Of a stretch of DNA of 56,738 bases, positions 1 to 40,686 are shown one piece after another. Position 1 is the stretch's first letter; every line of letters starts with the position of its first letter. The notes under the pieces are model-generated. The model was not told the origin of the DNA and did not search any database. It saw nothing but the letters and a program-made list of their open reading frames with translations. The DNA is from an uncultured Pseudomonadales bacterium (lineage in GTDB: Bacteria > Patescibacteriota > Microgenomatia > UBA1400 > CAYNMC01): contig CAYPXO010000005.1 in NCBI GenBank assembly GCA_964414895.1, positions 1 to 56,738 of the forward strand. The letters run 5' to 3'. A program made the translations under genes and the position numbers.

Positions 1-699
1 CTTGTGTGAATGTTTAACAAAAGCCAGATTAGTGACACAAGCCAGTCCTAAAACTTTTAATCCTAAAGAGCTTGCCATAATTACCTCCGGACAAATACTC
101 ATACCAGCCACATCAGCCCCTAAAATTCTTAGGGCTTTTTTATCAGCAAAGCTCTCATAATGCGGCCCCCGCATATAAGCATAAACTCCTTGCCTAAAAG
201 GAATTTTCTCTGCCCTACAAACCTTTAAAACAATCTCTCGCAAGCCTTGATTAAAAGGTTGAGAAAGATCCTGAAAGGAAGCACCGGAAAGCGGGCTTTG
301 TAAAAATAAATTGAGAATGTCTTTAATGACAACCAAATCTCCTATTTTATATTTTTTATTTAGACCGCCGACTGCCGAAGTTAAAACAAGCCTTTTTGTT
401 CCTAACTTGGCAAAAACTCTTACCGGCAAAGTAACCTTATACGAAGAATAACCCTCATAAGTATGCAGCCGTCCAGCCATTAACAAAGTTCTCTTTCCTG
501 CCAGCTTGCCAACTACTATCTTCCCCAAATGACCAGAAACACCGGCATCAACCCCAAAAACATCTTTAAAAGAAAACTGCTGGGCAACCTTAACTTTCTC
601 AATAACTTTATTCCAGCCCGAACCCAAAACCAAAACAGTCCCGGGAAAATCCGGCACTTTTCTTTTCAAAAAATCAACGGCCCTCTTTTCTTCAACCAT
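1..699 (-). CDS. purine nucleoside phosphorylase family protein (C-terminus cut by window edge)
   Basis: Own translation of the minus strand from ATG at 697-699: MVEEKRAVDFLKRKVPDFPGTVLVLGSGWN..GRLHTYEGY..MRGPHYESFAD..GADVAGMSICPEV. It stays open to position 1, so there is no stop in the window and it is absent from the ORF track. The motif pattern matches PNP/MTAP-type phosphorylases. Confidence 0.8.
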   Translation of the reverse strand, partial: MVEEKRAVDFLKRKVPDFPGTVLVLGSGWNKVIEKVKVAQQFSFKDVFGVDAGVSGHLGKIVVGKLAGKRTLLMAGRLHTYEGYSSYKVTLPVRVFAKLGTKRLVLTSAVGGLNKKYKIGDLVVIKDILNLFLQSPLSGASFQDLSQPFNQGLREIVLKVCRAEKIPFRQGVYAYMRGPHYESFADKKALRILGADVAGMSICPEVIMASSLGLKVLGLACVTNLAFVKHSHK

Positions 700-703
700 A
701 AAT

Positions 704-1951
704 TCAAGCTTCAATTAGTTTCTTATATTCCTTAAATCGCCTTTCTACTTCTTTTAAAAGAGCTCCCTTTTTTGGCAAAGCAATAGTTGGATCAATATAT
801 TCTCCTTTCTTAGTATAAAACCCCTTGCCATAAGCTAAACCATATCTTTTGTCTCTATCAACTACTTTCCTTTGGAGACTTTTTAAAGTTTTTCTAATTT
901 TAAAAGAAGCCGGCTTTCGACCTTTCGGATCAAAATATAGCTTTTCTTTTGAAAGAGTTCTATCTATCCATTTCTTTTCCTGGATAATTACTTGTAAAAT
1001 AGCTGGCAGCAATTTTCTTTGCCACTTCTCAAAAAATTTCTTTCCAAAATCAGTAAAAAAATCTTTCTTGTTCCATTTTAACAAGGCAAACATTCCTGCC
1101 AAATTATCAGAAAATCCCCTTAACCCCATCTTCCAATTAAGATAATCTTCTATTGAAAGATCCGGGCGCATAAAATACCATTCTTTCCCAGGATTATTGC
1201 TCGCCATTTTTCTCGCCCGTCTAATGTAGCGCCTGATTGCTTGTTCGGGCGTCTTTCCTCCAACTGAGAGTAACTTCTCCATATCATGAAGTAGTCTGCC
1301 TGGCTCTGTCAGCAAAGAAGCTATCCCTTCTTTTTTTTGGCTTGCTTGTTCAATCGCATAATCATGAAGTAAAACATCCCAAAAGAGTCTTTGTCTATCT
1401 TGAATGCTTAAACCAAACCTACCTGCTAATAAACAGACTATGGCCGCCCCGAGCTCTGCATGATGAAGATATCTTAAATTAACACTCTCTTTTGTTTCTT
1501 TTCCCTTTTTATCTATCTCTGAAACGACCACTCGGCCAATATCATGAGCAACCGCCAGCACTTCCCAAACTTCACTATTGCCAATTTCAGGCTTTCTTCT
1601 CAAAATGGCAGTCAAAATATAAAGACTGTGGACAACGCCATGAGTGGAATCAAAAAAAAATTCAATTAAACTTCTATAAACCAAAGCCTTTGTCAAACCA
1701 TTTCCCAAAAGAGTCTCTTTAAATAGCTCATACCATCTGGGTAAATATTTTCTCTCTTTAGGAGTAAAATTATCTTTTATCTCTTTTAAAACCGTTCTAT
1801 AACTAACCGAAGGAATAAAAACTCCTAATTCTTTAGCTTCGTTTTTTAATTCCTTATAAACCTTTAAATAATCATTGCTCTGAAAACTGCTAAGCGGCGA
1901 GGCAGTTTTAATAGAAAATTTTCCAGAATAACCTTTTTTGCTTTTCATCAT
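704..1951 (-). CDS. HD-domain phosphohydrolase-like protein
   Basis: 415-aa ORF with H..HD..H..D pattern (VVHSL, AHDIGRVV, HHAELGA, LLHDYA). Sits in the nucleotide-metabolism block. Confidence 0.6.
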   Translation of the reverse strand: MMKSKKGYSGKFSIKTASPLSSFQSNDYLKVYKELKNEAKELGVFIPSVSYRTVLKEIKDNFTPKERKYLPRWYELFKETLLGNGLTKALVYRSLIEFFFDSTHGVVHSLYILTAILRRKPEIGNSEVWEVLAVAHDIGRVVVSEIDKKGKETKESVNLRYLHHAELGAAIVCLLAGRFGLSIQDRQRLFWDVLLHDYAIEQASQKKEGIASLLTEPGRLLHDMEKLLSVGGKTPEQAIRRYIRRARKMASNNPGKEWYFMRPDLSIEDYLNWKMGLRGFSDNLAGMFALLKWNKKDFFTDFGKKFFEKWQRKLLPAILQVIIQEKKWIDRTLSKEKLYFDPKGRKPASFKIRKTLKSLQRKVVDRDKRYGLAYGKGFYTKKGEYIDPTIALPKKGALLKEVERRFKEYKKLIEA

Positions 1952-1954
1952 TCA

Positions 1955-3751
1955 TTACTCCCACTGAACTTGAGCTGGCGGTTTATGGCTAACATCATAA
2001 AAAACAGCATCAATCCCCTCCAAGGCTTTAATCTTTTGAGCCATTTCTTCAACTACCGGCCAAGGCAGTTTGGTAAACTCCGAGGTCATCGCGTTTTCCG
2101 AACAAAGAGGTCGCAAAACAATGCTTTCTCCACCCCGAAGACTAACTGGAATCATCACTACTGGAAATTCATAAACTTGCCCCACCAAACCATGCTTCGC
2201 CAAAGTTTGATTGGCAATATAATCTGCCATACAATGTGGCTTAAGCCTCTTCTTTGTCAAAAAGCCTTTCTTCAATCTTATCCTGCCCAATCTTTGCGGC
2301 TTTAAAAGATAAACAACATGATTAACCTCGGCTACCTTATTGGTAATTAGTGTGGAAACTTCCTCCAGGCGATCCCAGTCCTGATCTCCATTCATCAAAG
2401 AGCAAGCATAAGCAAAAGTGCGATGATCTCCTTGAACACCAACTGTCTTAACAGGCAAAACCTTAGCTTTATACTTAAATCTGCCGACAATTTTATTAAC
2501 TCTTTGTTCTAGTGATTTCGTTTTTGGTAATCTGGTAGTCGGACTACATAAAGACTGAATTGCCAAGCCCGGTCCAGGAAAAGTATGACGCCAAACTATT
2601 TGCTTGGGCAAGCCCAACTGCTTGCCTACCTTTCTAACTTCATCCTTATAAAGGTTAGCCAAAGGCTCTATGACCTTACCAGCAGCTATTAGGTCCAAAA
2701 CCGCCTGAACGCGATTGTGATGAGTAAAAATCTTGGCTGAATGCTTGGTTGCTCCACTTTCAATCCGATCCGGATAAAGAGTTCCTTGCCCCAACAACCA
2801 TTTGTCAGGATCAACTTTCAACCGCTTAAGAACTCTATCCTGCACTTCAATAAAAACCGTGCCAATAATTTTCCGCTTTTTTTCTGGATCAGACACTCCT
2901 TTGATAGCCTGTAAAAAATCTTTACTAGCGCCAACAACAATAAAATTCTTCAATCCCAAATTTTCTAAACTTTCTTTAACTGTTTGGCTTTCTTTATAGC
3001 GCATAAAACCATTGTCAATATGAAGACCCAAAACCCGCTTCTGTCCTAAAGCCTTATTCATTAAAACAAAAGCAACTGTTGAGTCAACTCCGCCACTAAT
3101 AAGCAAAAGAACATTTTTTTCTTTTACCTGTTTTTTAATTTTCTTAATCGCTTGGGTAATGAAATTTTTAGGGTTCCAATCCTTTGAACAACGGCAAATT
3201 TTGAGAGCAAAATTTCTCAGCATCTTTACTCCTTGGCGAGTATGGCTTACTTCAGGATGAAATTGAAAACCGTAAATTTTGCGCCGCTGATGGGCAATCG
3301 CTGCTGTCGGACAATCGGCAGTCAAACCAATAACTTTAAATCCTGGAGGTAGCTTTACTATTGAATCACCATGGCTCATCCAAACGGTTTCTTCTTCAGC
3401 TAAACCACGAAAAATACCCTTCCTATTAATAATTTTTAATTTTGCCTTTCCATATTCCCTTGTTTTTCCACTTTTAACTTCCCCTCCCAAAGCATGAGCA
3501 ATAAGCTGATGACCATAGCAAAGACCCAAAATCGGCACTCCCAGAGAAAAAATTTTTTTATCATAATTGGGGGCACTTTGCTCATAAACAACCGCCGGCC
3601 CGCCAGAAAGAATAATCCCTTCGGCTTTTTTAAAATTTTCGGCTTTTGTTTCCGAAGAAAAAATTTCCGAATAAACCCCCAAGGAACGAATTTGTTTGGC
3701 TAAAAGATGAGTATATTGGCTACCAAAATCAAGAATGGCAATCATAAACAC
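1955..3751 (-). CDS. guaA: GMP synthase (glutamine-hydrolysing)
   Basis: GATase motifs GLCYGHQLI and FHPEVSHT, PP-loop SGGVDSTV, C-terminal ..QWE. At 598 aa it is longer than typical GuaA. Confidence 0.9.
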   Translation of the reverse strand: MFMIAILDFGSQYTHLLAKQIRSLGVYSEIFSSETKAENFKKAEGIILSGGPAVVYEQSAPNYDKKIFSLGVPILGLCYGHQLIAHALGGEVKSGKTREYGKAKLKIINRKGIFRGLAEEETVWMSHGDSIVKLPPGFKVIGLTADCPTAAIAHQRRKIYGFQFHPEVSHTRQGVKMLRNFALKICRCSKDWNPKNFITQAIKKIKKQVKEKNVLLLISGGVDSTVAFVLMNKALGQKRVLGLHIDNGFMRYKESQTVKESLENLGLKNFIVVGASKDFLQAIKGVSDPEKKRKIIGTVFIEVQDRVLKRLKVDPDKWLLGQGTLYPDRIESGATKHSAKIFTHHNRVQAVLDLIAAGKVIEPLANLYKDEVRKVGKQLGLPKQIVWRHTFPGPGLAIQSLCSPTTRLPKTKSLEQRVNKIVGRFKYKAKVLPVKTVGVQGDHRTFAYACSLMNGDQDWDRLEEVSTLITNKVAEVNHVVYLLKPQRLGRIRLKKGFLTKKRLKPHCMADYIANQTLAKHGLVGQVYEFPVVMIPVSLRGGESIVLRPLCSENAMTSEFTKLPWPVVEEMAQKIKALEGIDAVFYDVSHKPPAQVQWE

Positions 3752-3758
3752 CTCCTGG

Positions 3759-4304
3759 TCAAAACCTCAATTTTAAATAATAATCTACTTGCTCTTCTGG
3801 CAAGCCGATTTTCAAAAATCTTTTTTTTATCTCCGACTTACTCCTGCCTAATTTTAACCATTTCTGGCCGATATTGGCAATTGACTCTCTTATCTCATGA
3901 GGAAAAATAATCCAGGTTTTGGTCTGGCAAAGATAAAAATCAGGTTTGTAAACTGACCAAGGCTTGTAAAAAAGAGCTGCCGCTGTAATCTTTGAGGCGC
4001 CAGCCATTTGTAAATAACTTTTGCTAAAAGGCAAGCTTTTCCCACTGTCAACCACATCATCAAAAAGCAGCACTTTTTCTCCCTTTACCGCCACCGGCAA
4101 AGACTGCAACAAAACCGGCTCTTTTCTTGTTTTGAAAACATCGCCATAAAACTCCAGTTGAATGCTGGCAATTTTTTCTATCGCCAACAGATCGAGCATG
4201 TTTCGCGCCCAAGTCCAGCCGCCTTTAGCCAAAGTCACCAAACGATCAAAACTCTTTTTTGAGGCAATAATTTTCTTAGCCAGCAGGTAACAATACTCAC
4301 CCAT
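3759..4304 (-). CDS. purine (hypoxanthine/xanthine/guanine) phosphoribosyltransferase
   Basis: PRPP-binding loop VLLFDDVVDSGKS. The gpt-like N-terminal motif (..SYLAPSWEEM..) lies upstream of the first ATG, so the true start is probably upstream and non-canonical (see findings). Confidence 0.75.
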   Translation of the reverse strand: MGEYCYLLAKKIIASKKSFDRLVTLAKGGWTWARNMLDLLAIEKIASIQLEFYGDVFKTRKEPVLLQSLPVAVKGEKVLLFDDVVDSGKSLPFSKSYLQMAGASKITAAALFYKPWSVYKPDFYLCQTKTWIIFPHEIRESIANIGQKWLKLGRSKSEIKKRFLKIGLPEEQVDYYLKLRF

Positions 4305-4374
4305 TTCTTCCCATGAAGGAGCCAGATAAGAAACCTTATCACCACTAAATTTTACTCCTTTGAATTTTAAGATT

Positions 4375-5490
4375 TTATCTCCCTTTATAATTTGGTTCTT
4401 CTTTGAGCATCATCACTCCGTGAGGATGGCTTTCGGCCAAAGAAGCCTGGCTAATTTTTAAAAATTTGGCTTTTTTATAAAGCTGGTTAAGATTTCCCGC
4501 CCCTAAAAAGCCCATACCTGACCGTAACCCTCCTGCCAGTTGTTCTAAAACCTCAGCCACCGGCCCCTTATAAGGAACCGCTCCCTCTATTCCCTGAGAA
4601 ACTTTATTTACTGAGCCTCTTTTATAACTGTAGCGATTGCCGGTTTTTCCCTCAGAAAGAGCAGAAACTGATCCCATCGCTCGGTAATGTTTATATTTTC
4701 TACCTTTAATCTTAATCAACTTTCCCGGCGCTTCCAGGCAGCCGGCAAAAAGACTACCGGCACAAACAGCGACTGCGCCCGTTGCTAAGGCCTTAACAAC
4801 CTCTCCAGAGTGTTTTATACCTCCGTCGGCAATAATTCCCACTTTACATTTTTTGGCAGCGGCTACTGTTTCAAAAAGGGCTGTCATCTGCGGCACTCCT
4901 ACTCCAGCAACAATTCTAGTGGTGCAAATAGTGCCGTTACCCACTCCCACTTTTATTGCCTCAACTCCAACCTTGGCCAAATGTTTTACGCCTTCACTCG
5001 TGGCCACATTACCTCCAATAATTTCCTGGCCAGAGAACTGTCTTCTCAAAGCCAAAATCGTCTCAATGACATTTTTGGAATCGCCATGAGAAACATCAAC
5101 CGCCAAAGCATCTACACCGGCCTTAATTAAAGCTTTACCTCTTCTGACTGCCTCTTTACCGGCACCAATAGCAGCAATTGTCTGTAAAAATCTCCTCTTG
5201 TCAACCGTCGCCTTGCTTGTTTTTCCTTTGTTCTTTTTAACTTTTTTAACTTGATTGACTTCGTAATCAATTGAACAATTGCGATGGATAATCCCAATCG
5301 CTCCTGCCTGGGCCATCGCCACCGCCATTTGCCACTCGGTTACTGTATCCATGTGGATAGAAATTATGGGAATTTTTAGTTTTATCCTGGGAGTCAACTG
5401 AGTGGAAATATCCACTTCGCCCGGCAGGATAGTTGAATATTGAGGAATTAATAATAAATCGTCAAAAGTAAGAGCCTCTTGGATATTCAT
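4375..5490 (-). CDS. guaB: IMP dehydrogenase, short form without CBS pair (IMPDH/GMPR family)
   Basis: Catalytic loop GVGNGTICTTR, GGIKHSGEVVKALATGA, C-terminal flap. At 371 aa the CBS subdomain must be absent. Confidence 0.85.
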   Translation of the reverse strand: MNIQEALTFDDLLLIPQYSTILPGEVDISTQLTPRIKLKIPIISIHMDTVTEWQMAVAMAQAGAIGIIHRNCSIDYEVNQVKKVKKNKGKTSKATVDKRRFLQTIAAIGAGKEAVRRGKALIKAGVDALAVDVSHGDSKNVIETILALRRQFSGQEIIGGNVATSEGVKHLAKVGVEAIKVGVGNGTICTTRIVAGVGVPQMTALFETVAAAKKCKVGIIADGGIKHSGEVVKALATGAVAVCAGSLFAGCLEAPGKLIKIKGRKYKHYRAMGSVSALSEGKTGNRYSYKRGSVNKVSQGIEGAVPYKGPVAEVLEQLAGGLRSGMGFLGAGNLNQLYKKAKFLKISQASLAESHPHGVMMLKEEPNYKGR

Positions 5491-5633: not shown

Positions 5634-6629
5634 CTATATAAATTCCTTATTAATAAAACTATTTTCAAAAGCAATCTTATTGGCTTTTAAAAGCTGTTTT
5701 TTGGTCATTATTTTGCTTTTATACAAAAACTCCATTTCTTTTAAAAGATCGGTTTTCAATAATTCCGGCCCGTCAGTATTAATACAAAACCTTACCTTTG
5801 CCTTGACAAAAGTTCTCATTATTTTTCTATATTCGTGGATACTTCCAACTACTCCTGTTTTAAGATTTGAAGTTGGGCAAATGGCCAACACTATGTCTCT
5901 CTCTCTTAAAACCTTCAATAGCTTTTTACTATAGGCCGCTTTTATTCCGTGAATTACTCGATGGGGGGAAAGACAATCAATCACTTCTCTCATCTCTTTA
6001 CTGCTACCTTCCTCTCCGGCATGAACAGACAAGCCCAAACCAGCCTCGGCTGCTTTCTCATACAAAGAGCGGTAACTATCATAAGAAAACTTTTTATTTC
6101 TAGGCCCGGCCAAATCGATACCAACTATTCCTCTTTTTTGATATTTGATTGCTTTTTGGACAATAATCTTATTTTCCTTAAAAGAAAATCGCCGGTCAAG
6201 AAAAAGAACAAGACCGGCTTTGAGTGGATATTCCAAAAGAGCCCTATCCATTCCCCTTAAGGCAGCCATAATTATGTGGTCCAAATCTTGTTCCCCCTCT
6301 CGGTTACGAAGCATCGGATTAAAACTGACCTCTAAAAGGGTAATATTGCAATTTCTATAAGCGCCGGAAATAATTTCGTAAATTGAACGCTCAATTGCCT
6401 GCGGACTTGACTGAATAAGCTCTGTCCAGTAAAAAAGTTTATGGTAATCGCTCCAGTTTATTTTATCTTTGGAAATGGTAATTAAGTCAACAAACTGCCA
6501 GAAATCCTTGGTTGGCAGGCGGATTCCTTGACTATGGGCAATGCTCCACATGATGGCCGGATCAACAGCACCACCAACATGGACATGAAGTTCGGCTAAT
6601 TCTGCCTTTCCAAAAAGATTATTCTTCAT
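5634..6629 (-). CDS. add: adenosine deaminase
   Basis: Metal-ligand motifs LHVHVGG, SVHAGE, CINTDGP. 331 aa. Confidence 0.85.
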   Translation of the reverse strand: MKNNLFGKAELAELHVHVGGAVDPAIMWSIAHSQGIRLPTKDFWQFVDLITISKDKINWSDYHKLFYWTELIQSSPQAIERSIYEIISGAYRNCNITLLEVSFNPMLRNREGEQDLDHIIMAALRGMDRALLEYPLKAGLVLFLDRRFSFKENKIIVQKAIKYQKRGIVGIDLAGPRNKKFSYDSYRSLYEKAAEAGLGLSVHAGEEGSSKEMREVIDCLSPHRVIHGIKAAYSKKLLKVLRERDIVLAICPTSNLKTGVVGSIHEYRKIMRTFVKAKVRFCINTDGPELLKTDLLKEMEFLYKSKIMTKKQLLKANKIAFENSFINKEFI

Positions 6630-6776
6630 TGCAACTTAAACTAATTAAAGCAATCTACAAAGCTCCCTTATCTATTAATCCAATCCTTTGTCATTCTCGA
6701 CTTGAAAGCGAAAGCGCTTCAAGATCGGGAATCTATAGCAGTAAATTGTCTCTATAAATCTCCATCAAAAATAAAA

Positions 6777-6803
6777 ACGGCCGCAAATGGCCGTTGTCTT
6801 TTT
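6777..6803. terminator. bidirectional rho-independent terminator-like hairpin
   Basis: ACGGCC-GCAAAT-GGCCGT stem-loop with an A-run upstream and a T-run downstream. Lies downstream of the minus-strand tmk-fusion gene. Confidence 0.5.
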
Positions 6804-6924
6804 AAAAACAATTTTTGGTTAAAAAAATAAGCTGGCTTCCCAACCATAATTAAATCTACAACAACTGCGCAGAAACTGTCAAGAAGAGAAAACGTATCTA
6901 TTCAGTTTTCCCCAATGAGATTTT

Positions 6925-7047
6925 GTCATTGCGATCCCGCAGAATGCGGGAGAAGCAATCTCTCAGACCTGCCTGCCTGTCCGGTCTTGCCTGCCGGCAG
7001 ACAGGCAGGCAGGGATCGCCACGGCTACTTCGTAGCCTCGCGATGAC
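6925..7047. repeat. composite palindromic element (GTCATTGCGA...TCGCGATGAC with nested CCTGCCTGCC..GGCAGGCAGG core)
   Basis: Outer inverted repeat plus an inner GC palindrome. The same two families recur at 9425-9478, 9605-9759, 38402-38478, 38613-38700, 39533-39637, 46751-46770 and 47306-47327. Confidence 0.8.
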
Positions 7048-7107
7048 AAAAATCTCCTTGCTAAAAATGTCAAATTTGACCCACGGCCGTGGGGGAAAAA
7101 TGACAGT

Positions 7108-8211
7108 CTAGAAAACCTTCCTTTTTCTCAAAATCGTTATGACTTCTTTATGAACTTCTTGGCGACTTTTCAACTTGCCTTTCTTATCCAGACAGTTAAT
7201 CATTACCCAGTGCAAGTATTTTTTAGCCAGCTGGCAATAAAGCTGAAACACTTTCCTTTGATACTTTAAACCTTCCTCAATATCTTTCTTCTTTCCTTTT
7301 TTGTATCTTTTCGCTTTTTGCAAAATCAGTTTATCACTGATCTCCGGCAAAACATAAAGAAAAAGAAGAATATCTTCCTTGGGCATTTTGTGCTGTTTGT
7401 ATTCCATATCATAAATCCAGTTAATAAACCTTCTTCTTTCCTTTGGCAAGAGTTTCGCCCCCTGATGAGCCAAACTCGAGGTCACATATCTGTCAGCGAC
7501 CACTATACGACCGTCATTTAGCCAATCCAAAATCTGATCTCTGGCAGTTAACCTATCCAAAGCAAAAGCCAAAGAAGAAAGGTAAGGACTGACCTCTTCT
7601 AGCTTGCCAAACTCACCACTAAGAAACCTGCCGACTGTTCGACCATGAAAGGAAGTATAGTAGCGAGGAAAGCTAATATAATTAGCTTTTATTTTTTCTC
7701 TTTTAAAATATTTCATCAGTAAATCTGTTTGTGTTGCCTTGCCAGAACCATTAGTGCCGTCAATAATAATCAACTTGCCCTTGCTTTTCTTTCGCAGACT
7801 AAAGTGTTTCAAGTTGGTCCGCAAAACAGTCGGCAAATTATCCTCATCATAGCTCTCTACATAAAGCTCCGGATGTCCCTTGACCATCATTGGCAGTTTG
7901 CCCCCATTGTCTTTATAAAAAAGGGCTAAAACCGGCTTGTTATTCTTCAAGGCATGTTCCATTAAAAAGGCCGTCCCCCAGGACGGCGCCGTTACTTCTG
8001 CAACCATCAAGTCCACTTTATCAATTGCTTTTGTCTCCCGCCTGAAAAGTTTTTCTGCCGAAAGACCATCACCAATCTTAAGTCGAGGATCAGCCACATA
8101 TTCAGAAATCACCTGATGTCCCTGCTTTTTAATCTCTTTAACAATTTTCTGATAAAGAGGCAAAAGTTTTCTTGTAAGACTAACTGCTGCTCCAAAATAA
8201 ACCTTCATCAT
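7108..8211 (-). CDS. tmk: fusion protein: N-terminal nucleoside 2-deoxyribosyltransferase-like domain + C-terminal thymidylate kinase
   Basis: N-terminal half resembles the NDT family (VDLMVAEVTAPSWGTAFLMEHA). C-terminal half has the P-loop IIIDGTNGSGKATQ and dTMP-kinase layout. Confidence 0.75.
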   Translation of the reverse strand: MMKVYFGAAVSLTRKLLPLYQKIVKEIKKQGHQVISEYVADPRLKIGDGLSAEKLFRRETKAIDKVDLMVAEVTAPSWGTAFLMEHALKNNKPVLALFYKDNGGKLPMMVKGHPELYVESYDEDNLPTVLRTNLKHFSLRKKSKGKLIIIDGTNGSGKATQTDLLMKYFKREKIKANYISFPRYYTSFHGRTVGRFLSGEFGKLEEVSPYLSSLAFALDRLTARDQILDWLNDGRIVVADRYVTSSLAHQGAKLLPKERRRFINWIYDMEYKQHKMPKEDILLFLYVLPEISDKLILQKAKRYKKGKKKDIEEGLKYQRKVFQLYCQLAKKYLHWVMINCLDKKGKLKSRQEVHKEVITILRKRKVF

Positions 8212-8411
8212 TTCTTAAGTATACAAAAAATTCATTTACTAGCAAATATAAAACCAAAAACTTTCTAGGCCTAATTTTTCCAGGTAAGCGGGAATTCTTT
8301 CCTGAGCCATAAATAAAGGCAGGAAAAAATAAATTATAATTTTTATCGGATTGGCGCTGTCTTTTTATAAAGCCAGAATTTTGAGTTCTTAAAATTCCTA
8401 CCCCTCCATCT

Positions 8412-9382
8412 TCATGTCCATTTGATTATCGGCCAGCTAGTTGAGAGCATCCCTGGCCGCACTAAATCATTACACTCTCCACACATTGGCGCATAATATG
8501 GGTTAATTGCCTCAACCAAACCAGAGAGATCGCCCATTATCGGACAAACATAATAGTTCCTACCATCAATTTCTACCTTCCAGTAATGGCCTTTTGTCAC
8601 CACACTAATATTCGCCAGCCCGCCACAGCCAACACATCTTGAATACCTTCGATTAATCAAAACTTTCCCTGGTTCCTGCTTCGCCCATTCGGTTAAGGCC
8701 GGTGTTGGCTCCCATGGCTCGCCTGAAGAAAAACGATCTACTCCTGTCAAAACTAGCTTTATTCCTTTTTTTTCTAAAACTTTTGCCATCAAAACCAGCT
8801 CTTGGCCAAAATCATTACTCTTTATCGCTTGTTTAAAATCATCCCAAAATTTTTCTGGTACACCAGCCGCTTCTAATGCAGCCTCTACGTCTTGCATTAT
8901 TTGTGACAAATAATCATCTCTAGAAAACAACAACAAACCTGCTTCTTCCAAAGCCGCCAATTTGAAATCTCCCTCTCTATTGGTAATCTTACTATTCACA
9001 AATCGCAAAAAATCCAAAAGTCCTTCTCAAGATTAATCTCAAAAGCCTTAGTCACTACTCTGTTAAACACTTTTGATTTTCCTGAACGCATCGCTCCGGT
9101 TAAAAAAACCACAGAAGTTCCCTCTTGTAAAGCAGAAACAATTAAATCGGTTGACTGACCAATACCTGGTTCTGTCCTTAAACCATCAAGTCTTTCAAAA
9201 TCAACAGCTACACATTTTTGTTCTCCTATCGTCAAAAGAAATCCTATCTCTCCTTCTCTTCCCAATATCTCTGCTTCCTGAACCTGCATAAGTAAGTCTG
9301 TTAAGACAGAAAGTTCTGTCCCATGCTGGAAAGGGCCAACAAATGAACCGATAGCTAGAGTCTCGCGTTTAGCCAAACTCAT
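8412..9382 (-). pseudogene. thymidine-kinase-like gene split over two reading frames
   Basis: ORF 8996-9382 ends with the P-loop LTGAMRSGKS. ORF 8412-9017 carries TK-like GVDRFSSGEPW and the Cys pairs CVGCGG / CGEC. The frames overlap at a T-run (9006-9012 on plus), and the total span of 971 nt is not a multiple of 3. Confidence 0.5.
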
Positions 9383-9604
9383 AATCCAAAATAACGCCTA
9401 AAATTATTTCAAAATTCCTCAACTGTTATCCCGCACCTGCCTACCGGTCTTGCCTGTCGGCAGACAGGCAAGCAGGCTTGACACGGGATCTATATAAATT
9501 TGAATTTTGAAATAGGCTTTTTAAATCGTCCCAAAAAAAATAGCCCTAAAAAAACCTGTCACCAAAACAGACAGGACAAATAAAGTTTCTTATTATTCAG
9601 TATA

Positions 9605-9759
9605 CAAATATTTGACTGGGGCATAATCATTCTTCTTGTCATTGCGAGGCGCCAAAGGCGCCGTGGCAATCTCATGAGATTGCTTCGCTTCGTCCTCGAC
9701 AAAACTTGGACTTCGCTCGCAATGACATAAGGTTGGATTATGTCCCGCCCATACAAATA
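9605..9759. mobile_element. MITE-like palindromic insertion splitting a conserved AT-rich palindrome
   Basis: Carries GTCATTGCGAG...CTCGCAATGAC inside. Flanked by the two arms (9590-9604, 9760-9774) of a palindrome that is intact at 21164-21198 and 49864-49898. CAAATA is directly repeated at both junctions. Confidence 0.6.
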
Positions 9760-9778
9760 TATACTAAATAATAACTCT

Positions 9779-10441
9779 TCAACAAAACAACTTCTCTACA
9801 TCATAAACTTTTCTCAAACTAATATCAGCCAGTTTTGACTTTCCCCAAACCAAACAAGTCCTCATCCCTATTTTTTTAGCCGGCACAAGGTCGGTTTTCT
9901 CCCGATCGCCGATAAACAAATGCTTCTCCGGTTTTAAAGCCGTATAATCCAAAATCGCTCTAAAAGGAAACAAGTCCGGTTTGAATCTGCCAAACATTTC
10001 TGCATTAGTAAAAATTTTTTCAAATATCTCCAAAGACAAACCCAATTTTTTGAGTTTTTTTATAGTTGGCGGGCCAGCCCCATTGGTGTCAATAATGTGC
10101 CTTAGGCCTTCAAGTCCTTTAAACATTTCCGCTAAACGCTCGTCTTTTTTTAGATATTTAAGCTGAATCTTACTATACCATTCTCCAGCCAAAACATACT
10201 CTCTATCCACTCCAAGAGCAATCAAGCTTTTAATACTACTGCCAAGCGTATGATAATTTTTCCAAAATAGCTTCTCCGCTTTCTGCCAAGACAAGCCTCT
10301 CGCCTTGACTACAAGCTCAATTACATTTTTATGGATTTCACTTTTAATCTCCGGAAGTTCTTTATACAAAGTGCCATCAAAATCCCAAACCAGAACTTTT
10401 ATTTGAGAAAGCCATTTTGGCTTTGTTAATCTATAGGCCAT
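9779..10441 (-). CDS. HAD-superfamily hydrolase (nucleotidase-like)
   Basis: HAD motif I VWDFDGTLY and motif IV GDREKTD. Confidence 0.7.
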   Translation of the reverse strand: MAYRLTKPKWLSQIKVLVWDFDGTLYKELPEIKSEIHKNVIELVVKARGLSWQKAEKLFWKNYHTLGSSIKSLIALGVDREYVLAGEWYSKIQLKYLKKDERLAEMFKGLEGLRHIIDTNGAGPPTIKKLKKLGLSLEIFEKIFTNAEMFGRFKPDLFPFRAILDYTALKPEKHLFIGDREKTDLVPAKKIGMRTCLVWGKSKLADISLRKVYDVEKLFC

Positions 10442-12834: not shown

Positions 12835-13010
12835 TATAGTCTTCCTCTTTTTGCCCATTTTCTTTCATTCTACGTATAGCTCTTTAAAAACAAAATGGCG
12901 GGTTTTTCAAAACCTATCCCTTGTCTTCCTTTGTCATTCCACACTTGATGCGGAATCTATAAAAATAGGTCTCCAAAAATTTCTCAATAACAAATCAACC
13001 ATGTAACCAT

Positions 13011-14678
13011 CTATCCATTTAATAATCTCCTTTTATATCTTTTCTCCAAACTCTGCAAAATCTTTTTATGAAACTTCTTCTCATAATCTTTTACCAAACT
13101 TTTGATCTGACCGCAAGATACCTCTTCGTGGCAAAAAGCGGTTTGTTGACATTTAACACTAATTGCCTCGGCTAATTCCGGCAAGCCTTTCTTTTTTAAA
13201 ACCTTTTTTATTGCTAAAACTTCTCCTTTACTTAAAGAAAGCAGTTGCTCCTCGACAGTTGAGCAAAGACGCAAAGGGTAATAACCGGCAATCAAATTAT
13301 AAAGATCATAGCTTTGCAAAACATCAATGCGGATGCCTCGGGGAATAATAAAAACCGCATCACGCGGCTTAACCCCTAACTTAAGTAATTTTTGATAACA
13401 ACCTAGCGAACCAAAAACAGACCGAAGATACTTTTTAAAAAAGTAAGGATTGTCTCGGACAGTTGGCGGAATAGAAAAAACCGAATCAATTTTATCTATT
13501 GTTCTATTGCTATATTGTTCTATTGCTATATTGTTAAATTTTGAATTTTCAATTTCAATTTTCAATTTCTTTAACAACTCGCAAGTACGATCTATGCAGT
13601 AGTATATCGATTCCACCACTTGCGGCACTGTCCGGTGACGCTTTTTGTCTCCCCAGACCCGCCAGGCAACCGAAGAGAGAGCTTTAAAATTAACTGCCAG
13701 GTTATAGTCGCGGCAAATTCTCCGCCTCATAGCCAACAGCTTTGGCCAATCTTTTAAAATTTTCTTTTTATCTTTGGCAATTTTCTTGGTCAAAGAGTTC
13801 AATCTCTTTAATTCCTGGCGCAAACCATTCGGGCTATCACAAAGAGTCATCCCTACAATGGACATCAAACCTGTAGGGGCGGGTCGTGACCCGCCCGTTT
13901 TAATTACGGGCGACCGACCGGTCGCCCCTACAAATGCCCTGACCAAATTTGAGGCTCTTGGATTTTTAAAGATATTAGGATAGGGGTAAATGTTTCGCGG
14001 GGCAACCAAACGGGTAGGGAAAAGCTGACCAACGCCCCACTTAGCAAATTGCTTCTCCAAAACTCCCAGAAGAATCCCTGCCTCCTCCGGCATCCAATCC
14101 TTTTCCAGCTCAAACTCCCGGGCAAAACCGACTACTGACTCGATAGGCAAAACCAAAATACCGGTGCCGTAAATACCGTATTGCAAAATCTTGCTCGCCT
14201 CATCTTTAGAAACACCCTTGCCCAAAAGCCAATTAAAGCAATTAATATTTTCCATTGACTGCTTTTGATAAATTTTTCTCGCTTTTTTGTTTTTCCAAAT
14301 AGCCGTTGGAGAAACAATATCATCAGCTTTTGTCCCTGTCCGCCGACCGGAGGCCATCAAAGCCGAGGCAAAAACAATACCTGTCATCATCGAGTCTATA
14401 AACTTACTTGCCTCATAAGTAAAAGCCAAAACTGGGGTAGTCGCAATTGAGGCATGGCCGCGCAAAGAAGACTTTTCCAAAATAACTTTCACTTTTTTGT
14501 CCAAATCTTGCCCTTTGCTATGAGTTTCTTTTAGAAGCTGTTTGACCGATTTTCCCTTGAAAGTCAAAAGCGCTGATAGAGCAACAATTTGCTCTGGGGT
14601 TAAAACACCAGTTTTATCTTGCAGGCGAGGAATAATTCCTAAGAATTGGAGTTTAAAGTTAGCCGTCTTTATCGACAT
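13011..14678 (-). CDS. ThyX-like (flavin-dependent thymidylate synthase family) protein, long form with in-frame repeat insertions
   Basis: RGHASIATTP.. and KKRHRTV segments resemble ThyX motifs. Context (glyA, dcd, tmk) fits. Divergent at 555 aa. Contains a REP-like element at 13873-13931 and simple repeats at 13501-13570. Confidence 0.5.
   Translation of the reverse strand: MSIKTANFKLQFLGIIPRLQDKTGVLTPEQIVALSALLTFKGKSVKQLLKETHSKGQDLDKKVKVILEKSSLRGHASIATTPVLAFTYEASKFIDSMMTGIVFASALMASGRRTGTKADDIVSPTAIWKNKKARKIYQKQSMENINCFNWLLGKGVSKDEASKILQYGIYGTGILVLPIESVVGFAREFELEKDWMPEEAGILLGVLEKQFAKWGVGQLFPTRLVAPRNIYPYPNIFKNPRASNLVRAFVGATGRSPVIKTGGSRPAPTGLMSIVGMTLCDSPNGLRQELKRLNSLTKKIAKDKKKILKDWPKLLAMRRRICRDYNLAVNFKALSSVAWRVWGDKKRHRTVPQVVESIYYCIDRTCELLKKLKIEIENSKFNNIAIEQYSNRTIDKIDSVFSIPPTVRDNPYFFKKYLRSVFGSLGCYQKLLKLGVKPRDAVFIIPRGIRIDVLQSYDLYNLIAGYYPLRLCSTVEEQLLSLSKGEVLAIKKVLKKKGLPELAEAISVKCQQTAFCHEEVSCGQIKSLVKDYEKKFHKKILQSLEKRYKRRLLNG
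13873..13931. repeat. 59-bp GC-rich REP-like palindromic element inside the ThyX-like CDS
   Basis: GTAGGGGCGGGTCGTGACCCGCCCGT..ACGGGCGACCGACCGGTCGCCCCTAC. 58/59 identical to 14767-14825. Translated in frame as VGATGRSPVIKTGGSRPAPT. Confidence 0.9.
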
Positions 14679-14702
14679 TTTGCGCTTAATGATACCATAC
14701 TT

Positions 14703-15083
14703 TCAATATCTCCTGTTTATATTCCTTGGATTTTCCTTATCATAGTCCCATTTTAAAGTCCCCAATGTAGGGGCGGGTCGTGACCCGCCCGTTTTGATTA
14801 CGGGCGACCGACCGGTCGCCCCTACAATTTGAATGATGAAATGTACATGGTTGGGCATCATTTGAAATATATCCAATACCACCTGATGGTGCTTTGGTAA
14901 TGACTCCCAAATGTTTCTGACAATTTCCCCAATCCAATTTAATACCATTTTCCCATCAACAATATTACCAAACAAACATTCCTTATCTTTTGTGCAAATG
15001 GTGACAAAATACCAACCTTCCGAAGAGTAATCATAATCCCTTAAACGAATTGATTTGCGCTGGGGTAAATCTTTCAAATTCAA
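14703..15083 (-). CDS. IS200-like / REP-associated tyrosine transposase (RAYT)-like protein, apparently truncated
   Basis: N-terminal KSIRLRDYDYSSEGWYFVTICT and HUH-type motif MPNHVHFII. Only 126 aa and the C-terminal catalytic Tyr helix is not seen. Contains the REP-like element. Confidence 0.6.
   Translation of the reverse strand: MNLKDLPQRKSIRLRDYDYSSEGWYFVTICTKDKECLFGNIVDGKMVLNWIGEIVRNIWESLPKHHQVVLDIFQMMPNHVHFIIQIVGATGRSPVIKTGGSRPAPTLGTLKWDYDKENPRNINRRY
14767..14825. repeat. 59-bp REP-like palindromic element inside the RAYT-like CDS
   Basis: Same element and orientation as 13873-13931, with one mismatch. Confidence 0.9.
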
Positions 15084-15125
15084 CGTTTGTAAATGCTTAA
15101 ATTGGTCATTGAAAATTGAAAATTT

Positions 15126-15641
15126 TCATACCTGCTCTTCTTTCTTTTTTGTCGTTACCCTCCCTCCCTGCCATTGGCCACGGTAAAGGGCAGTCTTGCC
15201 GGAAACACGGGCAAACATAAGATGAACTATGCGGGCACCTGTCTCAATCTTCACTTTGCAAGGGCCAAGATTGGCCATGCCGAAAGTCAACTCACCGGAA
15301 TAGCCGGGAGCAACTTGGGCGGTGCGTAAAAAAATACCCATTCGTTGCAAGCTACTGCGAGGTTTAAAAATACCTACCAAATCAGAAGGAAGATTGATTT
15401 TTTCTATAGTTTTCACCAGATAAAAATCACCGGGGTTTATAATAACACTTTTGACTTTTGTTATCTCACAAGTTTTCCTCTCCTTCACTCCCAAATACCC
15501 CTTCCCTTTAATTCGATAAACCTCGCCGACTCGTAAATCAAAACCACAACCCTCGGGATTTTCAAGCTCCCGCTGACAAAGTCCTTCAACGAGCTTTTTT
15601 TCCTTGACTAGCCTTAGTAGTTGATCAACGCCGAGGAACAT
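15126..15641 (-). CDS. dcd: dCTP deaminase family protein
   Basis: 171 aa with a Dcd/dUTPase-like pattern (..APGYSGELTFGMANLGP..). Confidence 0.8.
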   Translation of the reverse strand: MFLGVDQLLRLVKEKKLVEGLCQRELENPEGCGFDLRVGEVYRIKGKGYLGVKERKTCEITKVKSVIINPGDFYLVKTIEKINLPSDLVGIFKPRSSLQRMGIFLRTAQVAPGYSGELTFGMANLGPCKVKIETGARIVHLMFARVSGKTALYRGQWQGGRVTTKKKEEQV

Positions 15642-15644
15642 AAT

Positions 15645-15776
15645 AAAAAGCGAAAAGCTAAAAGTGCAAAGCGAAAAACTACAACGTAAAAGTCAAAACT
15701 TTCATCAAAATTACATTAAAATTAGCTTTACGCTTTGAGTTGTAGCTTTTACTTTTTAGCTTTTACTTTTTAGCTT
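15645..15776. repeat. AT-rich 7-bp-periodic hairpin element (AAAGC-type arms)
   Basis: Left arm ..GCTAAAAGTGCAAAGCGAAAAACTACAAC, right arm GTTGTAGCTTTTACTTTTTAGC... The right arm supplies the last codons (KLKSKS) of the Clp ORF. Related copies at 18568-18675, 21493-21545, 22634-22740 and 23270-23331. Confidence 0.8.
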
Positions 15777-17663
15777 TATCAAATATTCCCCCTCCCTCTC
15801 CTCCCACTCTACCTCAATCTCGTCTCCCCTTCGTATCCTTCCCCCCAGCATCCCCTTGGCAATCTCATCCTCAATCTTGTCAGCAATTACTCGCTTCATT
15901 GACCGAGCGCCAAATTCCGGCGAATAACCCTCAAGAACAACTTGCTTGATTACTGCCGGCCCAAATTTTAAAATAACATCTTTTTTAGTTAAGCGCAAAG
16001 CCAATTTAGTAAGCTGCAGACGGGCAATCTGTTCTAATTCTTTCCTGCCTAGAGGCTGAAAAACAACTACTCCGTCAAAACGGTTTAAAAACTCCGGAGA
16101 AAATAAGCCCTTGCTCTGGATATATTCTATTGTTAGGCTCTGTAATTCTTGTTTATTAACCCCCGCCTGAACTTTTTCTCGGATAAACTCACCGGCCGCA
16201 TTGGAAGTAGCAATAATAATAGTGTCAACGAAAGAAACCTTTCTATCCTGGAAATCAGTTAAATAGCCTTCGTCAAAAACGGTCAAGAAAATGTCTAAAA
16301 GCCGGCGGTGGGCCTTTTCCAACTCGTCAAGCAAAAAAACAGAAAAAGGGTTGTCTTTCGCTTTACTAACCAAAAGTCCTAAGCCGGCAGTTTGCGAACC
16401 GATCAACCTCTCCAAGCTCTCCTGCCTTTGATACTGACCCATGTCAAAACGGACCAGCCGCGACTCGTCTCCAAAATAAACTTGGGCTAAGGTCTTGGCT
16501 GTCTCTGTTTTCCCTACCCCTGTCGGACCTAGAAAAAGAAAAACTCCCATTGGCTTCTTGCGAGAAGAAACTTGCAACCGGGAGCGGCGCAAAGCAGAAG
16601 CCAACCGCCCAATAGCTTCTTGTTGGTTAACTACTCTTTTATGCAAACTTTCTTCTATTTTAACCAGCTTTTTTTCTTCCCCTGAAGAAATTGCTCCAAC
16701 TGGCACTCCTGACTTTTCAGAAACCAGTTGATCAATATCTTTGCTCGTAATCAACTTCTTCCTTTTAATCTCTTCAAACTTGCTAATTGCCTGATCAAGT
16801 AAATCAATCGCCTTTTCCGGAAAAGGAATCTCAGTAATTAAACGATCGGAAAGCTCAATAATCTTTTCTAAAGCTTGATAGCTAACCTTTACTTTCTTCC
16901 CTTGTTCGAAATCAGGCAAAATCGCCTGGAGAATTTCCAAGGCCTGCTCTTTGCTTGGCGGCCGGACACTAATCTTTTCAAAAAGCTTTAAAAACTCCTC
17001 ATTGCCAACTAAATACTTGTTAAAAGCCTCACTGCTGGCAAGAGCAATAAGCTGCAAGCGTCCGCTGGCCGCTGCTTTAGAAAAAATGCCTATCAGCTCA
17101 ACCTGTCCCTCGCCGGAAGAAACAAATTTGTCTATCTCCTCAATAATCAAAATAATGTGGCCGGCTGCAATCGCCTCGGCAAGCAAAGAAGAAAGTTTTT
17201 CTTTACTCTCTTGCAAGGCAGACTTTTTAATTATCCTGTTTAACTCAAGCCTAAGGACGCGCTTGTAAGCCAACTGAGGCCTAGTCTCTCCTTGATGAAC
17301 CAGCCGGGCAAACCCTAACACAATCGTCTGCTTGCCCACGCCCGGCGGACCAACGAGTAAAACATTGTTTTCTCCTTTTCTTCCCAAAACTTCTTCAATT
17401 TTACCAACCTCTTCTTCCCGACCAACCAACTGGTGAAAAAAAGGAGTCGGTTGAGTCAAATCAGTCACATATTCATCTAAGTTGGGAGTATAGCCAAAAG
17501 AAAAGCTCCAACCAATGCCCGGGCCTTTAAGCAAATTTTCTTTTTCCCAAAAACGAGCCTTTTTCTGCCTCTTTTTTTCCAGGCTTTCAAACCAGCGGGC
17601 AACTTCCAAAACATGCTCTGGTTTTATCTTTCGGTCAAATAAGAACCTCTTCTTCCCGACCAA
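15756..17663 (-). CDS. Clp/Hsp100-type double AAA+ ATPase (C-terminal part of a gene split by a tandem duplication)
   Basis: Two Walker A motifs (GPPGVGKQT, GPTGVGKTE) and ClpA/B-type D2 small-domain sequence. The track start is a TTG inside the duplicated segment. Confidence 0.85.
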   Translation of the reverse strand: MVGKKRFLFDRKIKPEHVLEVARWFESLEKKRQKKARFWEKENLLKGPGIGWSFSFGYTPNLDEYVTDLTQPTPFFHQLVGREEEVGKIEEVLGRKGENNVLLVGPPGVGKQTIVLGFARLVHQGETRPQLAYKRVLRLELNRIIKKSALQESKEKLSSLLAEAIAAGHIILIIEEIDKFVSSGEGQVELIGIFSKAAASGRLQLIALASSEAFNKYLVGNEEFLKLFEKISVRPPSKEQALEILQAILPDFEQGKKVKVSYQALEKIIELSDRLITEIPFPEKAIDLLDQAISKFEEIKRKKLITSKDIDQLVSEKSGVPVGAISSGEEKKLVKIEESLHKRVVNQQEAIGRLASALRRSRLQVSSRKKPMGVFLFLGPTGVGKTETAKTLAQVYFGDESRLVRFDMGQYQRQESLERLIGSQTAGLGLLVSKAKDNPFSVFLLDELEKAHRRLLDIFLTVFDEGYLTDFQDRKVSFVDTIIIATSNAAGEFIREKVQAGVNKQELQSLTIEYIQSKGLFSPEFLNRFDGVVVFQPLGRKELEQIARLQLTKLALRLTKKDVILKFGPAVIKQVVLEGYSPEFGARSMKRVIADKIEDEIAKGMLGGRIRRGDEIEVEWEEREGEYLIKLKSKS

Positions 17664-17884
17664 CCAACTGGTGAAAAAAAGGAGTCGGTTGAGTCAAATC
17701 AGTCACATATTCATCTAAGTTGGGAGTATAGCCAAAAGAAAAGCTCCAACCAATGCCCGGGCCTTTAAGCAAATTTTCTTTTTCCCAAAAACGAGCCTTT
17801 TTCTGCCTCTTTTTTTCCAGGCTTTCAAACCAGCGGGCAACTTCCAAAACATGCTCTGGTTTTATCTTTCGGTCAAATAAGAAC
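17406..17884. repeat. perfect 238-bp tandem duplication (2 copies, 3-bp AAC junction microhomology)
   Basis: 17406-17643 matches 17644-17881 by direct comparison. 238 is not divisible by 3. Confidence 0.9.
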
Positions 17885-18564
17885 TTGTTTAAAGGTTGCC
17901 AATCACGGCTGAGTTGAAAAAATAGGTCGGATAGGCGTGTAGGGGCGCGGTTTTCGCGCCCGTCATTGCGGTTTTCGCGCCCGTCAGACCAAACGGGTAA
18001 GGGAACCTCGCATGAGACGGGCGGGATGACCCCGCCCCTACGGATTGAATCCCCACCAGATGAGTCAACCAAACCATTGATCTCCTTTCCCTCAATCCCC
18101 AATCTCTCAATCACAAACCGGCCAATCGGCCGAGAAACAAGCATTAACAAAATCGCTGCCGGATCTCTGGTTTGGCTCAAAATCTTCTCCACTTCATTTT
18201 CCGATTTCCCTTTTATCCATTTATAAATCGGCCAGGACAAAAGAAAAGCAAACTGCCAGATCAGCAAAAAAGCCACTCCTAAGAAGACTAAAGCCAGCTC
18301 CGCCAGCAAGCCGATAAAAATCAGAAAACTGCGAACCAAAAAACCAATTACTCTAGAGATCAAATTAAAAGTTAATCTCTCTAAAAAGGCTTTGGGCGAG
18401 AAGCCGGTTTTTTCCAAAGAAACTACCCGCCGCCAGGGAGAAAAAAGAGTTTTTAGTAAAATTCCTATGGAGAAAAAATGCCAGCAAGCCAAAAGATAAT
18501 TTTTCCAAATCTTGAGGATAAATCTATTGACGGTCTGGTAGTGCCAAAAGAAATAAGAAATCAC
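17635..18564 (-). CDS. N-terminal membrane-domain fragment of the same AAA+ gene
   Basis: Hydrophobic N-terminus. The C-terminal ~80 aa duplicate the N-terminus of ORF 15756-17663 (FLFDRKIKPEHVLEVARWFESLEKKRQKK..). Confidence 0.6.
   Translation of the reverse strand: MISYFFWHYQTVNRFILKIWKNYLLACWHFFSIGILLKTLFSPWRRVVSLEKTGFSPKAFLERLTFNLISRVIGFLVRSFLIFIGLLAELALVFLGVAFLLIWQFAFLLSWPIYKWIKGKSENEVEKILSQTRDPAAILLMLVSRPIGRFVIERLGIEGKEINGLVDSSGGDSIRRGGVIPPVSCEVPLPVWSDGRENRNDGRENRAPTRLSDLFFQLSRDWQPLNKFLFDRKIKPEHVLEVARWFESLEKKRQKKARFWEKENLLKGPGIGWSFSFGYTPNLDEYVTDLTQPTPFFHQLVGREEEVLI
17939..18041. repeat. 103-bp REP-like element (GTAGGGGCG...CGCCCCTAC) in frame within a CDS
   Basis: Terminal inverted GTAGGGGCG/CGCCCCTAC with internal GCGCGGTTTTCGCGCCCGT duplicated. 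Translated as ..PVWSDGRENRNDGRENRAPT.. Confidence 0.8.
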
Positions 18565-40597: not shown

Positions 40598-40686
40598 AGA
40601 ACCTACAACGGGCGCGAAAACCGCGCCCCTACAAATTCTCTTATCATAAAACTCTGAAACTCTCTAACTCTAACTATCTAAAATCT

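Follow-up and report, generated by a model that had tools for sequence, protein, structure and literature searches.

Repetitive extragenic palindromic (REP) sequences of the GTAG type are classically found outside genes and in high copy number. Among the TnpA-REP proteins or REP-associated tyrosine transposases (RAYTs), subclass 2.4 is unique in having REPs inserted within tnpA-REP itself (Quentin, Siguier, Chandler and Fichant 2018, PMC6006769). Its members, which correspond to RAYT group 4 of Bertels et al. 2017, have a median length of 194 aa and the signature NH[IFV]H, WQ and YIxNNP (Table 1, PMC6006769), and the double-foot REP described for them has the form 5' GT[AG]G ... C[TC]AC 3'. 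The subclass was reported from Cyanobacteria, Bacteroidetes and "various phyla", with Patescibacteria unnamed (PMC6006769), and in the collection of papers searched we found none linking Patescibacteria and REPs. GTAG REP dimers located within open reading frames (ORFs) are known to encode 20-30 aa, many of them in genes for DNA synthesis or repair (Di Nocera, De Gregorio and Rocco 2013, PMC3733652). Such intragenic GTAG and CGTC REPs were presumed to lie in tolerant loops and were likened to the Rickettsia palindromic elements (RPE), which are in-frame inserts in R. conorii genes (cited in PMC3733652). REPINs, finally, consist of two inverted REPs with a short spacer, can fold into a long hairpin and have a RAYT as presumed mobiliser (Bertels and Rainey 2011, PMC3116915). 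Here we describe a 59-bp REP dimer that is present both in a thyX-like gene and in the adjoining RAYT-like gene of a Patescibacterium, on contig CAYPXO010000005.1, whose 56,738 nucleotides were analysed over their full length (the window).

As in subclass 2.4, the RAYT-like protein has an HUH motif, its intact homologues are of ~185 aa with WQ and YIxNNP-type motifs, the feet of the element are GTAG/CTAC, and the REP lies in frame between the HUH and the Tyr motifs. However, the window copy is reduced to a relic of 126 aa that lacks both the W and the Y motif and has no flanking REPs, the host is a Patescibacterium, and the dimer inside the gene has a twin in a neighbouring housekeeping gene. 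Like the intragenic GTAG REPs (PMC3733652), the window dimers are wholly contained in ORFs and of the 20-30-aa type, but they belong to another phylum, their targets are a fused thyX and a ClpC-like gene, and the source appears traceable to the adjoining RAYT. The inverted pair, the short spacer and the long-hairpin potential are those of a REPIN; in contrast to REPINs, which are extragenic, number tens to hundreds and accompany a single-copy intact RAYT, here we have two intragenic copies (at >=90% likeness) and a dead RAYT. With RPE the element shares the nature of palindromic selfish DNA lying in frame in coding genes, in surface loops, but it is not a member of that family, RPE-1 being longer, of unrelated sequence and without a GTAG foot or a link to a RAYT. 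Both halves of the finding are instances of published phenomena (PMC6006769, PMC3733652), and what is new locally is the host phylum, the target genes and the traceable pair of source and copy. We consider it probable that the REP dimer of the RAYT gene was copied locally into thyX, most likely by a cut-and-join of the RAYT type.

One REP dimer in two neighbouring genes

The copy in the thyX-like gene (13873-13931) and the one in the RAYT-like gene (14767-14825) are direct repeats, identical at 58 of 59 positions, the sole mismatch being A at 13902 versus G at 14796. They are offset by 894 bp, lie on the same strand in the same orientation, and their identity overruns the 59 bp by 1 nt on the left and 2 nt on the right, giving 62 nt. 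This near-identical pair had been pointed out in a first-pass annotation made from the sequence alone. Each of the 24-nt halves occurs exactly twice in the window, with 0 occurrences expected from shuffles, and the GC content of the element is 68% versus 40% for the window. On the plus strand, a first arm (13873-13896, GTAG+GGGCGGGT-CGTG-ACCCGCCC) is followed by a spacer of 11 nt (13897-13907 in the ThyX copy) and a second arm (13908-13931, GGGCGACC-GACC-GGTCGCCC+CTAC). Read on the coding (minus) strand, arm one is GTAG-GGGCGACC-GGTC-GGTCGCCC, the 11-nt spacer is GTAAT(T/C)AAAAC and arm two is GGGCGGGT-CACG-ACCCGCCC-CTAC. The element is thus made of two hairpins in inverted orientation, each with a GC stem of 8 bp that adjoins a GTAG foot, in agreement with the outer GTAGGGG/CCCCTAC pairing and the two inner GC hairpins of the first-pass annotation. 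With GTAG-GGGCGGGT...GGTCGCCC-CTAC it has the form of a GTAG-tagged, double-foot REP (5' GT[AG]G and 3' C[TC]AC at a GC-rich stem), and the arms of 24 nt + 24 nt around the 11-nt spacer reproduce the REPIN layout of two inverted REPs with a short spacer. It can be folded as two hairpins or as a single long hairpin, and folding of the single-stranded DNA gave -23 to -24 kcal/mol, with z = -4.3 to -5.5 versus shuffled sequences.

Both copies are located inside minus-strand ORFs and are translated as VGATGRSPVIKTGGSRPAPT. The remaining two frames are closed by stops on either strand, namely the TAG in the GTAG foot and the TAA in the spacer. Since no frame other than that of VGATGRSPVIKTGGSRPAPT is open, the two copies could not but share it, and the shared frame says nothing about the copying route. 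The common reading frame to which attention had been drawn is therefore real but carries no information, and we rejected it as evidence of gene conversion.

The thyX-like gene (13011-14678, minus strand) codes for a fused, two-half flavin-dependent thymidylate synthase of 555 aa (Pfam Thy1, PF02511, E=1.8e-13, 51 bits versus a cut-off of 24.8), with the RHR (RHRT) motif in its C-terminal half. It has 457 homologues, called FAD-dependent thymidylate synthase where they are named, most of them of ~536 aa; an exact-protein look-up found no identical protein on record. The 59-bp double-foot REP dimer encodes residues 250-269, and this 20-residue segment is missing from all 23 aligned orthologues, which are up to 68% identical. 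It follows the conserved PYPNIFKNP..NLVRE block, in a variable stretch where the linker has 6-15 aa in relatives and 25 aa in the window, or 5 aa without the 20 encoded by the REP. In an AlphaFold model built on the ortholog alignment (pLDDT 82.6, pTM 0.84), for which all top 50 fold matches in the PDB are ThyX/FDTS, residues 253-271 are a coil that links a helix to a strand, and pLDDT falls below 50 at 255-270. Judged by the alignment, the 20 residues are a lineage-specific insertion and, according to the model, they fall in the disordered linker between the two ThyX-like halves; comparison with orthologues and placement in the fold, both proposed in the first-pass annotation, came out as its reading would have it. 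The protein with its insert would still be functional. An ancestral origin of the segment as coding sequence at both sites, for which its family-typical presence in the RAYT gene could be quoted, deserves practically no credit: its presence in 0 of 23 orthologues and their typical length of ~536 aa versus 555 refute it for ThyX.

A second variable loop of ThyX (window 13495-13569, residues ~370-395) is built of short tandem repeats with period 16 (TATTGTTCTATTGCTA) and period 7/13 (AATTTTC/TTTCAATTTTCAA), which resemble the heptamer tracts of the intergenic regions of this genome, and the orthologues P0001 and P0061 have repeat-like inserts of their own at this loop (..SPAPFGAGQ.. and ..CHPELGSGSKEMPKQVWHDE..). 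In addition, the minus strand at 13843-13856 (ATTGTAGGGATGAC) matches the first 14 nt of the RAYT copy (ATTGTAGGGGCGAC) at 12 of 14 positions. The stretch is found 18 nt beyond the downstream end of the ThyX insert, in a part of the protein that is native and structured (SIVGMT), and the likeness could be due to chance, target preference or microhomology.

The RAYT-like relic and its native REP site

The adjoining ORF (14703-15083, minus strand, 126 aa) is a relic resembling RAYT/TnpA-REP of subclass 2.4. It has kept an HUH motif of the NH[IFV]H type (PNHVHF, residues 77-82) and, five residues past HVH at the site native to the family, the internal REP dimer (residues 87-106). Its matches to Pfam Y1_Tnp (E=1.3e-3) and NCBIfam REP_Tyr_transpos (E=6e-5) are both below cut-off; REP_Tyr_transpos, where the relic scores 22.9 bits and intact homologues reach 58-62 (cut-off 80), is also the best family for the homologues. 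A homologue search returned 1,895 proteins (best E=1e-40), the best of which are 58-61% identical and 181-187 aa long, several being named REP element-mobilizing transposase RayT in their sources. In the alignment, intact homologues show NH[VI]H, WQRNYYEH and YIxxNP (YIKTNP/YIINNP), which is the signature of subclass 2.4. Assignment of the family to TIRYT or subclass 2.1 was rejected since a C-terminal helix-turn-helix extension is missing, and the motifs and internal REPs fit subclass 2.4.

In the window ORF, both the W motif (WQ) and the Y motif (YIxNNP, with the catalytic tyrosine) have been lost. APT-LGT is directly followed by LKWDYDKENP, which aligns with the family C-terminal LMWNRDRNNP, and the alignment indicates an in-frame loss of ~51 codons with which the WQRNYYEH and YIxxNP regions are gone. 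Judged by its motifs, the window copy is a dead relic of the family and not a functional member. The first-pass annotation had rightly recognised an internally deleted ORF devoid of the tyrosine; it had let the deletion begin at the palindrome, but it begins three codons after it, between LGT and LKW.

The palindrome had also been regarded as an intrusion into this gene, and here the comparison gave a different result, as intact homologues carry the segment at the exact site. The homologue P0122 has VGATRGSPASIKTGGSRPAPTLG at the matching post-HUH position, in the context HFVIQI-VGATRGSPASIKTGGSRPAPT-LGTIIGLFKSE. REPs inside the tnpA-REP gene, the trait of subclass 2.4, were likewise found in the RAYT loci L004, L005, L021 and L046. 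The gene of L004 contains a related REP dimer at the DNA level, and in the GTAG...CTAC dimer of L005 the right arm together with the downstream bases matches the window over 30 nt (AAAACGGGCGGGTCACGACCCGCCCCTACATTGGG-type right half). L021 and L046, from metagenome-assembled genomes (MAGs) labelled Gammaproteobacteria and Saccharibacteria, have their REP arms split and flanking the HUH region, with a right arm (GGC GGG TCA CGA CCC GCC CCT AC) unchanged with respect to the window. Identity to the window at third codon positions is 0.8-0.9 across the REP arm versus 0.32-0.68 in the two flanking coding blocks, and therefore the arm is held constant as DNA, not only as protein. On these comparisons the palindrome is native to the RAYT gene family and did not intrude into a decaying gene. 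The presence of the segment in orthologues, which the first-pass annotation itself had named as speaking against its proposal, is thus what we found at the RAYT site.

REPs flanking the relic, as in the REPtron layout, were not observed, no GTAGGGG/CCCCTAC being present in its 24-nt and 42-nt intergenic flanks. In a relative with a 64%-identical ThyX, the slot between dcd and thyX is filled by an unrelated 128-aa ORF and there is no RAYT, from which it follows that the RAYT at this slot is lineage-specific.

Additional REPs were seen in genes of this family. In L021 and L046 one arm is placed after the FGxI turn and the other follows HUH; in L005 the FGxI-turn site holds a third REP (L005:201-224); and the homologues P0121, P0135 and P0143 have an additional VGATRGSP-type insert immediately before WQRN. 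With inserts after the FGxI turn, after HUH and before WQRN, the RAYT gene therefore has three recurrent REP-accepting loops. Another homologue, P0176 (L006:5207-5761, also L007-L011), which is present on 24 contigs, is situated between the giant ORFs 1-5205 and 5758-10365, which abut or overlap it, as if a RAYT unit had been inserted in a single, very large gene for a surface protein in a genome of the Roizmanbacteria type.

Origin of the copy in the thyX-like gene

The inverted REP pair has its home in the RAYT gene, in frame between the HUH and Tyr motifs, and we propose that a discrete unit of 60-62 nt was copied from there in a single event to a position 894 bp downstream on the same strand. 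The landing site is the short, variable, disordered linker of the fused ThyX, which accommodates the insert as a loop of 20 residues. The copy was most likely made by a RAYT that cut and joined single-stranded DNA at the GTAG hairpin feet, as analogy with IS200/IS605 and the TnpA-REP of E. coli would suggest, the acting enzyme being either the window RAYT before its in-frame deletion or another genomic RAYT in trans. Since the RAYT site is inherited, one local copy from RAYT to thyX is the most economical explanation, and this is presumably the direction taken. The end of the identity 1-2 nt beyond the feet fits the movement of a discrete unit. Because just one base differs, the event was probably recent. 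At the variable site the ThyX copy shares the base of L005 (ATTAAAAC), an indication that the synonymous change is the younger state, acquired in the RAYT relic. The copy would have survived because GTA-GGG... is the only open frame and 60 nt keep the frame of the gene. The general idea of the first-pass annotation, REP DNA moved or copied into coding sequence and tolerated as peptide loops, holds for ThyX and for an AAA+ gene discussed below, but not for the RAYT site, which is native.

The soundness of the locus was checked on Logan contigs and unitigs of the source sequencing run rather than on reads. One unitig was found per flank (13000-13932, 13904-14826 and 14798-17435), with depths of 13.3, 13.2 and 12.4, respectively, and a contig of 2,638 nt covers 14.9-15.6 kb, so that zero depths tabulated for that part were taken as an effect of display. 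At >=90% likeness, the element has these two contexts only. As these two contexts are the only ones at this likeness, and the left arm and spacer do not recur in six dimers from metagenomes of the Joint Genome Institute (JGI; see below), the window copies are mutual closest relatives. Because the unitigs break inside the repeat, it is the original assembly and the continuity of the coding sequences that support the order of the genes. A mis-join in the de Bruijn graph, or a chimera, might be suspected from these breaks and from a perfect 238-bp tandem duplication with a low-depth junction in the same contig. We nevertheless hold such an artefact to be very improbable for the thyX repeat, as the ThyX copy is flanked by ThyX in the correct order and the RAYT copy by RAYT, the three unitigs are equal in depth, the one-base difference implies distinct loci, and the linker has a normal length once the 60 nt are removed.

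Several points weigh against local copying by a RAYT. An intact RAYT has not been shown in this genome, and the adjoining one is without its catalytic Tyr. What is established in vitro for RAYTs is only cleavage and rejoining; to our knowledge, no RAYT, not even that of E. coli, has been directly seen to drive the transposition of a REP, and for this reason the mechanism is put forward by analogy. Two copies at >=90% likeness are unlike a proliferating REPIN population. No target-site signature is definable at the two sites, the shared TT...A flank possibly belonging to the copied tract. Finally, with unitigs that break in the repeat, the source-run data support the presence and equal depth of the copies, not junctions at the level of reads.

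Some of these points would suit a process without a transposase, in which replication template switching provoked by the hairpins, or short-patch gene conversion, pasted the RAYT segment into thyX. Just 894 bp separate the two copies, which agree in strand and orientation, the adjoining RAYT is dead as an enzyme, and no more than these two copies were seen at >=90% likeness; moreover, TTGTAGGGATGAC, 18 nt downstream of the ThyX insert, resembles the start of the element (TTGTAGGGGCGAC, its first 13 nt) and might have provided microhomology. However, this stretch is 18 nt off the junction, in a native structured segment, and there is no homology between the flanks. Gene conversion is not expected to respect the limits of the element, whereas the identity ends 1-2 nt from the feet on both sides, and the in-frame occurrence of such dimers in unrelated genes of other organisms argues for a general insertion process. 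Template switching or gene conversion is therefore, in our opinion, unlikely.

The distribution of the element bears on whether the RAYT copy was the source at all. The exact 24-mer of the right arm, GGGCGGGTCACGACCCGCCCCTAC, was found in 37 genome stretches (L012-L048), two of them inside RAYT genes, in a set of genomes other than the window's own, where ~0.004 matches in 596 Gb were expected by chance. The MAGs concerned are labelled Uhrbacteria, Saccharibacteria, Peribacteria, Chloroflexia, Gammaproteobacteria, Thermoleophilia, Omnitrophota and Fibrobacteres, among others, and in one Gammaproteobacteria MAG (JABDGN01) it is present 8 or more times, paired with another left arm (VGAARERPA type). 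When contigs of JGI metagenomes were scanned for GTAGGGGCG-N15-45-right arm, six dimers came up, none of them with the left arm and spacer of the window. Five of the six form part of the reading frame of long ORFs (topA-like, dprA-like and others), with the translation VGAT...GGSRPAPT, so that this type of dimer recurrently enters housekeeping genes in other organisms. These five and both window copies have one orientation relative to the coding strand; the 37 genome matches are mostly extragenic or ambiguous, and the cases are too few to judge strand-specific insertion. In the source run, a search at 85% likeness gave one extra loose end at 13932, continuing as GATCCTAAGCCC..., and a more divergent third copy may be present in the sample.

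If such elements were dispersed throughout the genome as a REPIN population, both copies could be independent insertions, and the RAYT copy would not be the source. The other GTAG-bounded sequence types of the window (17939-18041 and 40608-40632), the presence of the 24-nt arm in 37 stretches of many phyla with only 2 in RAYT genes, and the loose end at 85% likeness would be in line with this possibility. Against it, the source-run contigs contain just the two contexts at >=90% likeness, the conserved family site implies that the RAYT copy was inherited and not newly inserted, and the left arm and spacer common to both copies were seen nowhere else. We regard independent insertion as improbable.

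A more far-reaching interpretation, to which we give a modest chance at best, is that the REP pair embedded in the RAYT gene is a selected, dual-coded master copy and the thyX insert its local product. As protein loop and DNA hairpins at once, it would ensure the co-inheritance of enzyme and substrate and seed new copies, and the thyX insert would have been caught in the act, in a phylum whose REP/RAYT systems would be largely intragenic. Indirect support for this idea is seen in the constancy of the arm, to the nucleotide, in RAYT genes across MAG phyla and in the 37 stretches.

Other GTAG-type elements and REP-derived loops

Within the window, the tally of GTAG-type elements is two copies of the 59-bp dimer, one related dimer and one single REP. 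The related dimer (17939-18041, minus strand, 103 bp) is of the GTAG...CTAC type, bounded by GTAGGGGCG...CGCCCCTAC, and combines two other hairpin types with a tandem duplication of 21 nt inside it. Its translation, in frame with the ClpC-like gene, gives 35 aa (RRGGVIPPVSCEVPLPVWSDGRENRNDGRENRAPT); the first-pass annotation had listed it as in frame in an AAA+ membrane domain. These 35 aa belong to the variable linker that joins the membrane domain to the AAA+ body and is ~20 residues longer in the window than in 12 orthologues. The single REP (40608-40632, minus strand, GTAG-GGGCGCG-GTTTT-CGCGCCC) is extragenic, 12 nt downstream of the stop of ORF 39941-40597, and over 25 nt it matches the left arm of the 17939 element exactly; the half-copy acting as a 3' hairpin that had been described at 40608-40631 is thus a single GTAG REP past a stop codon.

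A further related element had been placed at about 35590-35610 in a GT-C-like gene. The GC-rich hairpin present there (35589-35614, minus strand), read as VVAPRRAPA in a loop of the GT-C-like membrane protein, has feet of the GTGG/CTGC type (GCAG/CCAC, not GTAG) and brings no added length in comparison with 11 orthologues; it is not supported as a related insertion, and its relation to the GTAG family is doubtful. In P0318, the orthologue of this protein (ORF 35304-36401), an extra ..YRFRVKPGMTRK.. is present in the loop where the window has the GC hairpin, and it looks like a translated palindromic repeat of the GTCATTCC type. Here too, repeats would seem to have settled in loops of membrane proteins of the group.

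The ClpC-like gene itself is split into two ORFs (15756-17663 and 17635-18564) by a perfect 238-bp tandem duplication (17406-17881) whose length is not a multiple of 3. When one copy is removed, a single ORF of ~856 aa results, colinear with orthologues of ~820 aa. The junction of the duplication is a 57-nt unitig with a depth of 4 versus 12-15 in the flanks, and the repeat unit has a depth of ~10, not ~26. The duplication is likely to be either an assembly artefact or a variant carried by a minority.

The current understanding of REPs and RAYTs is unchanged by these findings. The locus offers a clean, datable case of REP-type selfish DNA entering an essential gene and surviving there, with the source gene adjoining, and its survival would have depended on a single open frame, on a length divisible by three and on a landing site in a disordered linker between domains. 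With this locus, the REP/RAYT biology of subclass 2.4 is extended to Patescibacteria. For annotation, VGAT...APT-type peptides in such proteins are to be read as repeat-derived loops, not as motifs. In the small genomes of Patescibacteria, with their scant intergenic space, repeats seem to gather in protein linkers such as those of ThyX and the ClpC-like protein.

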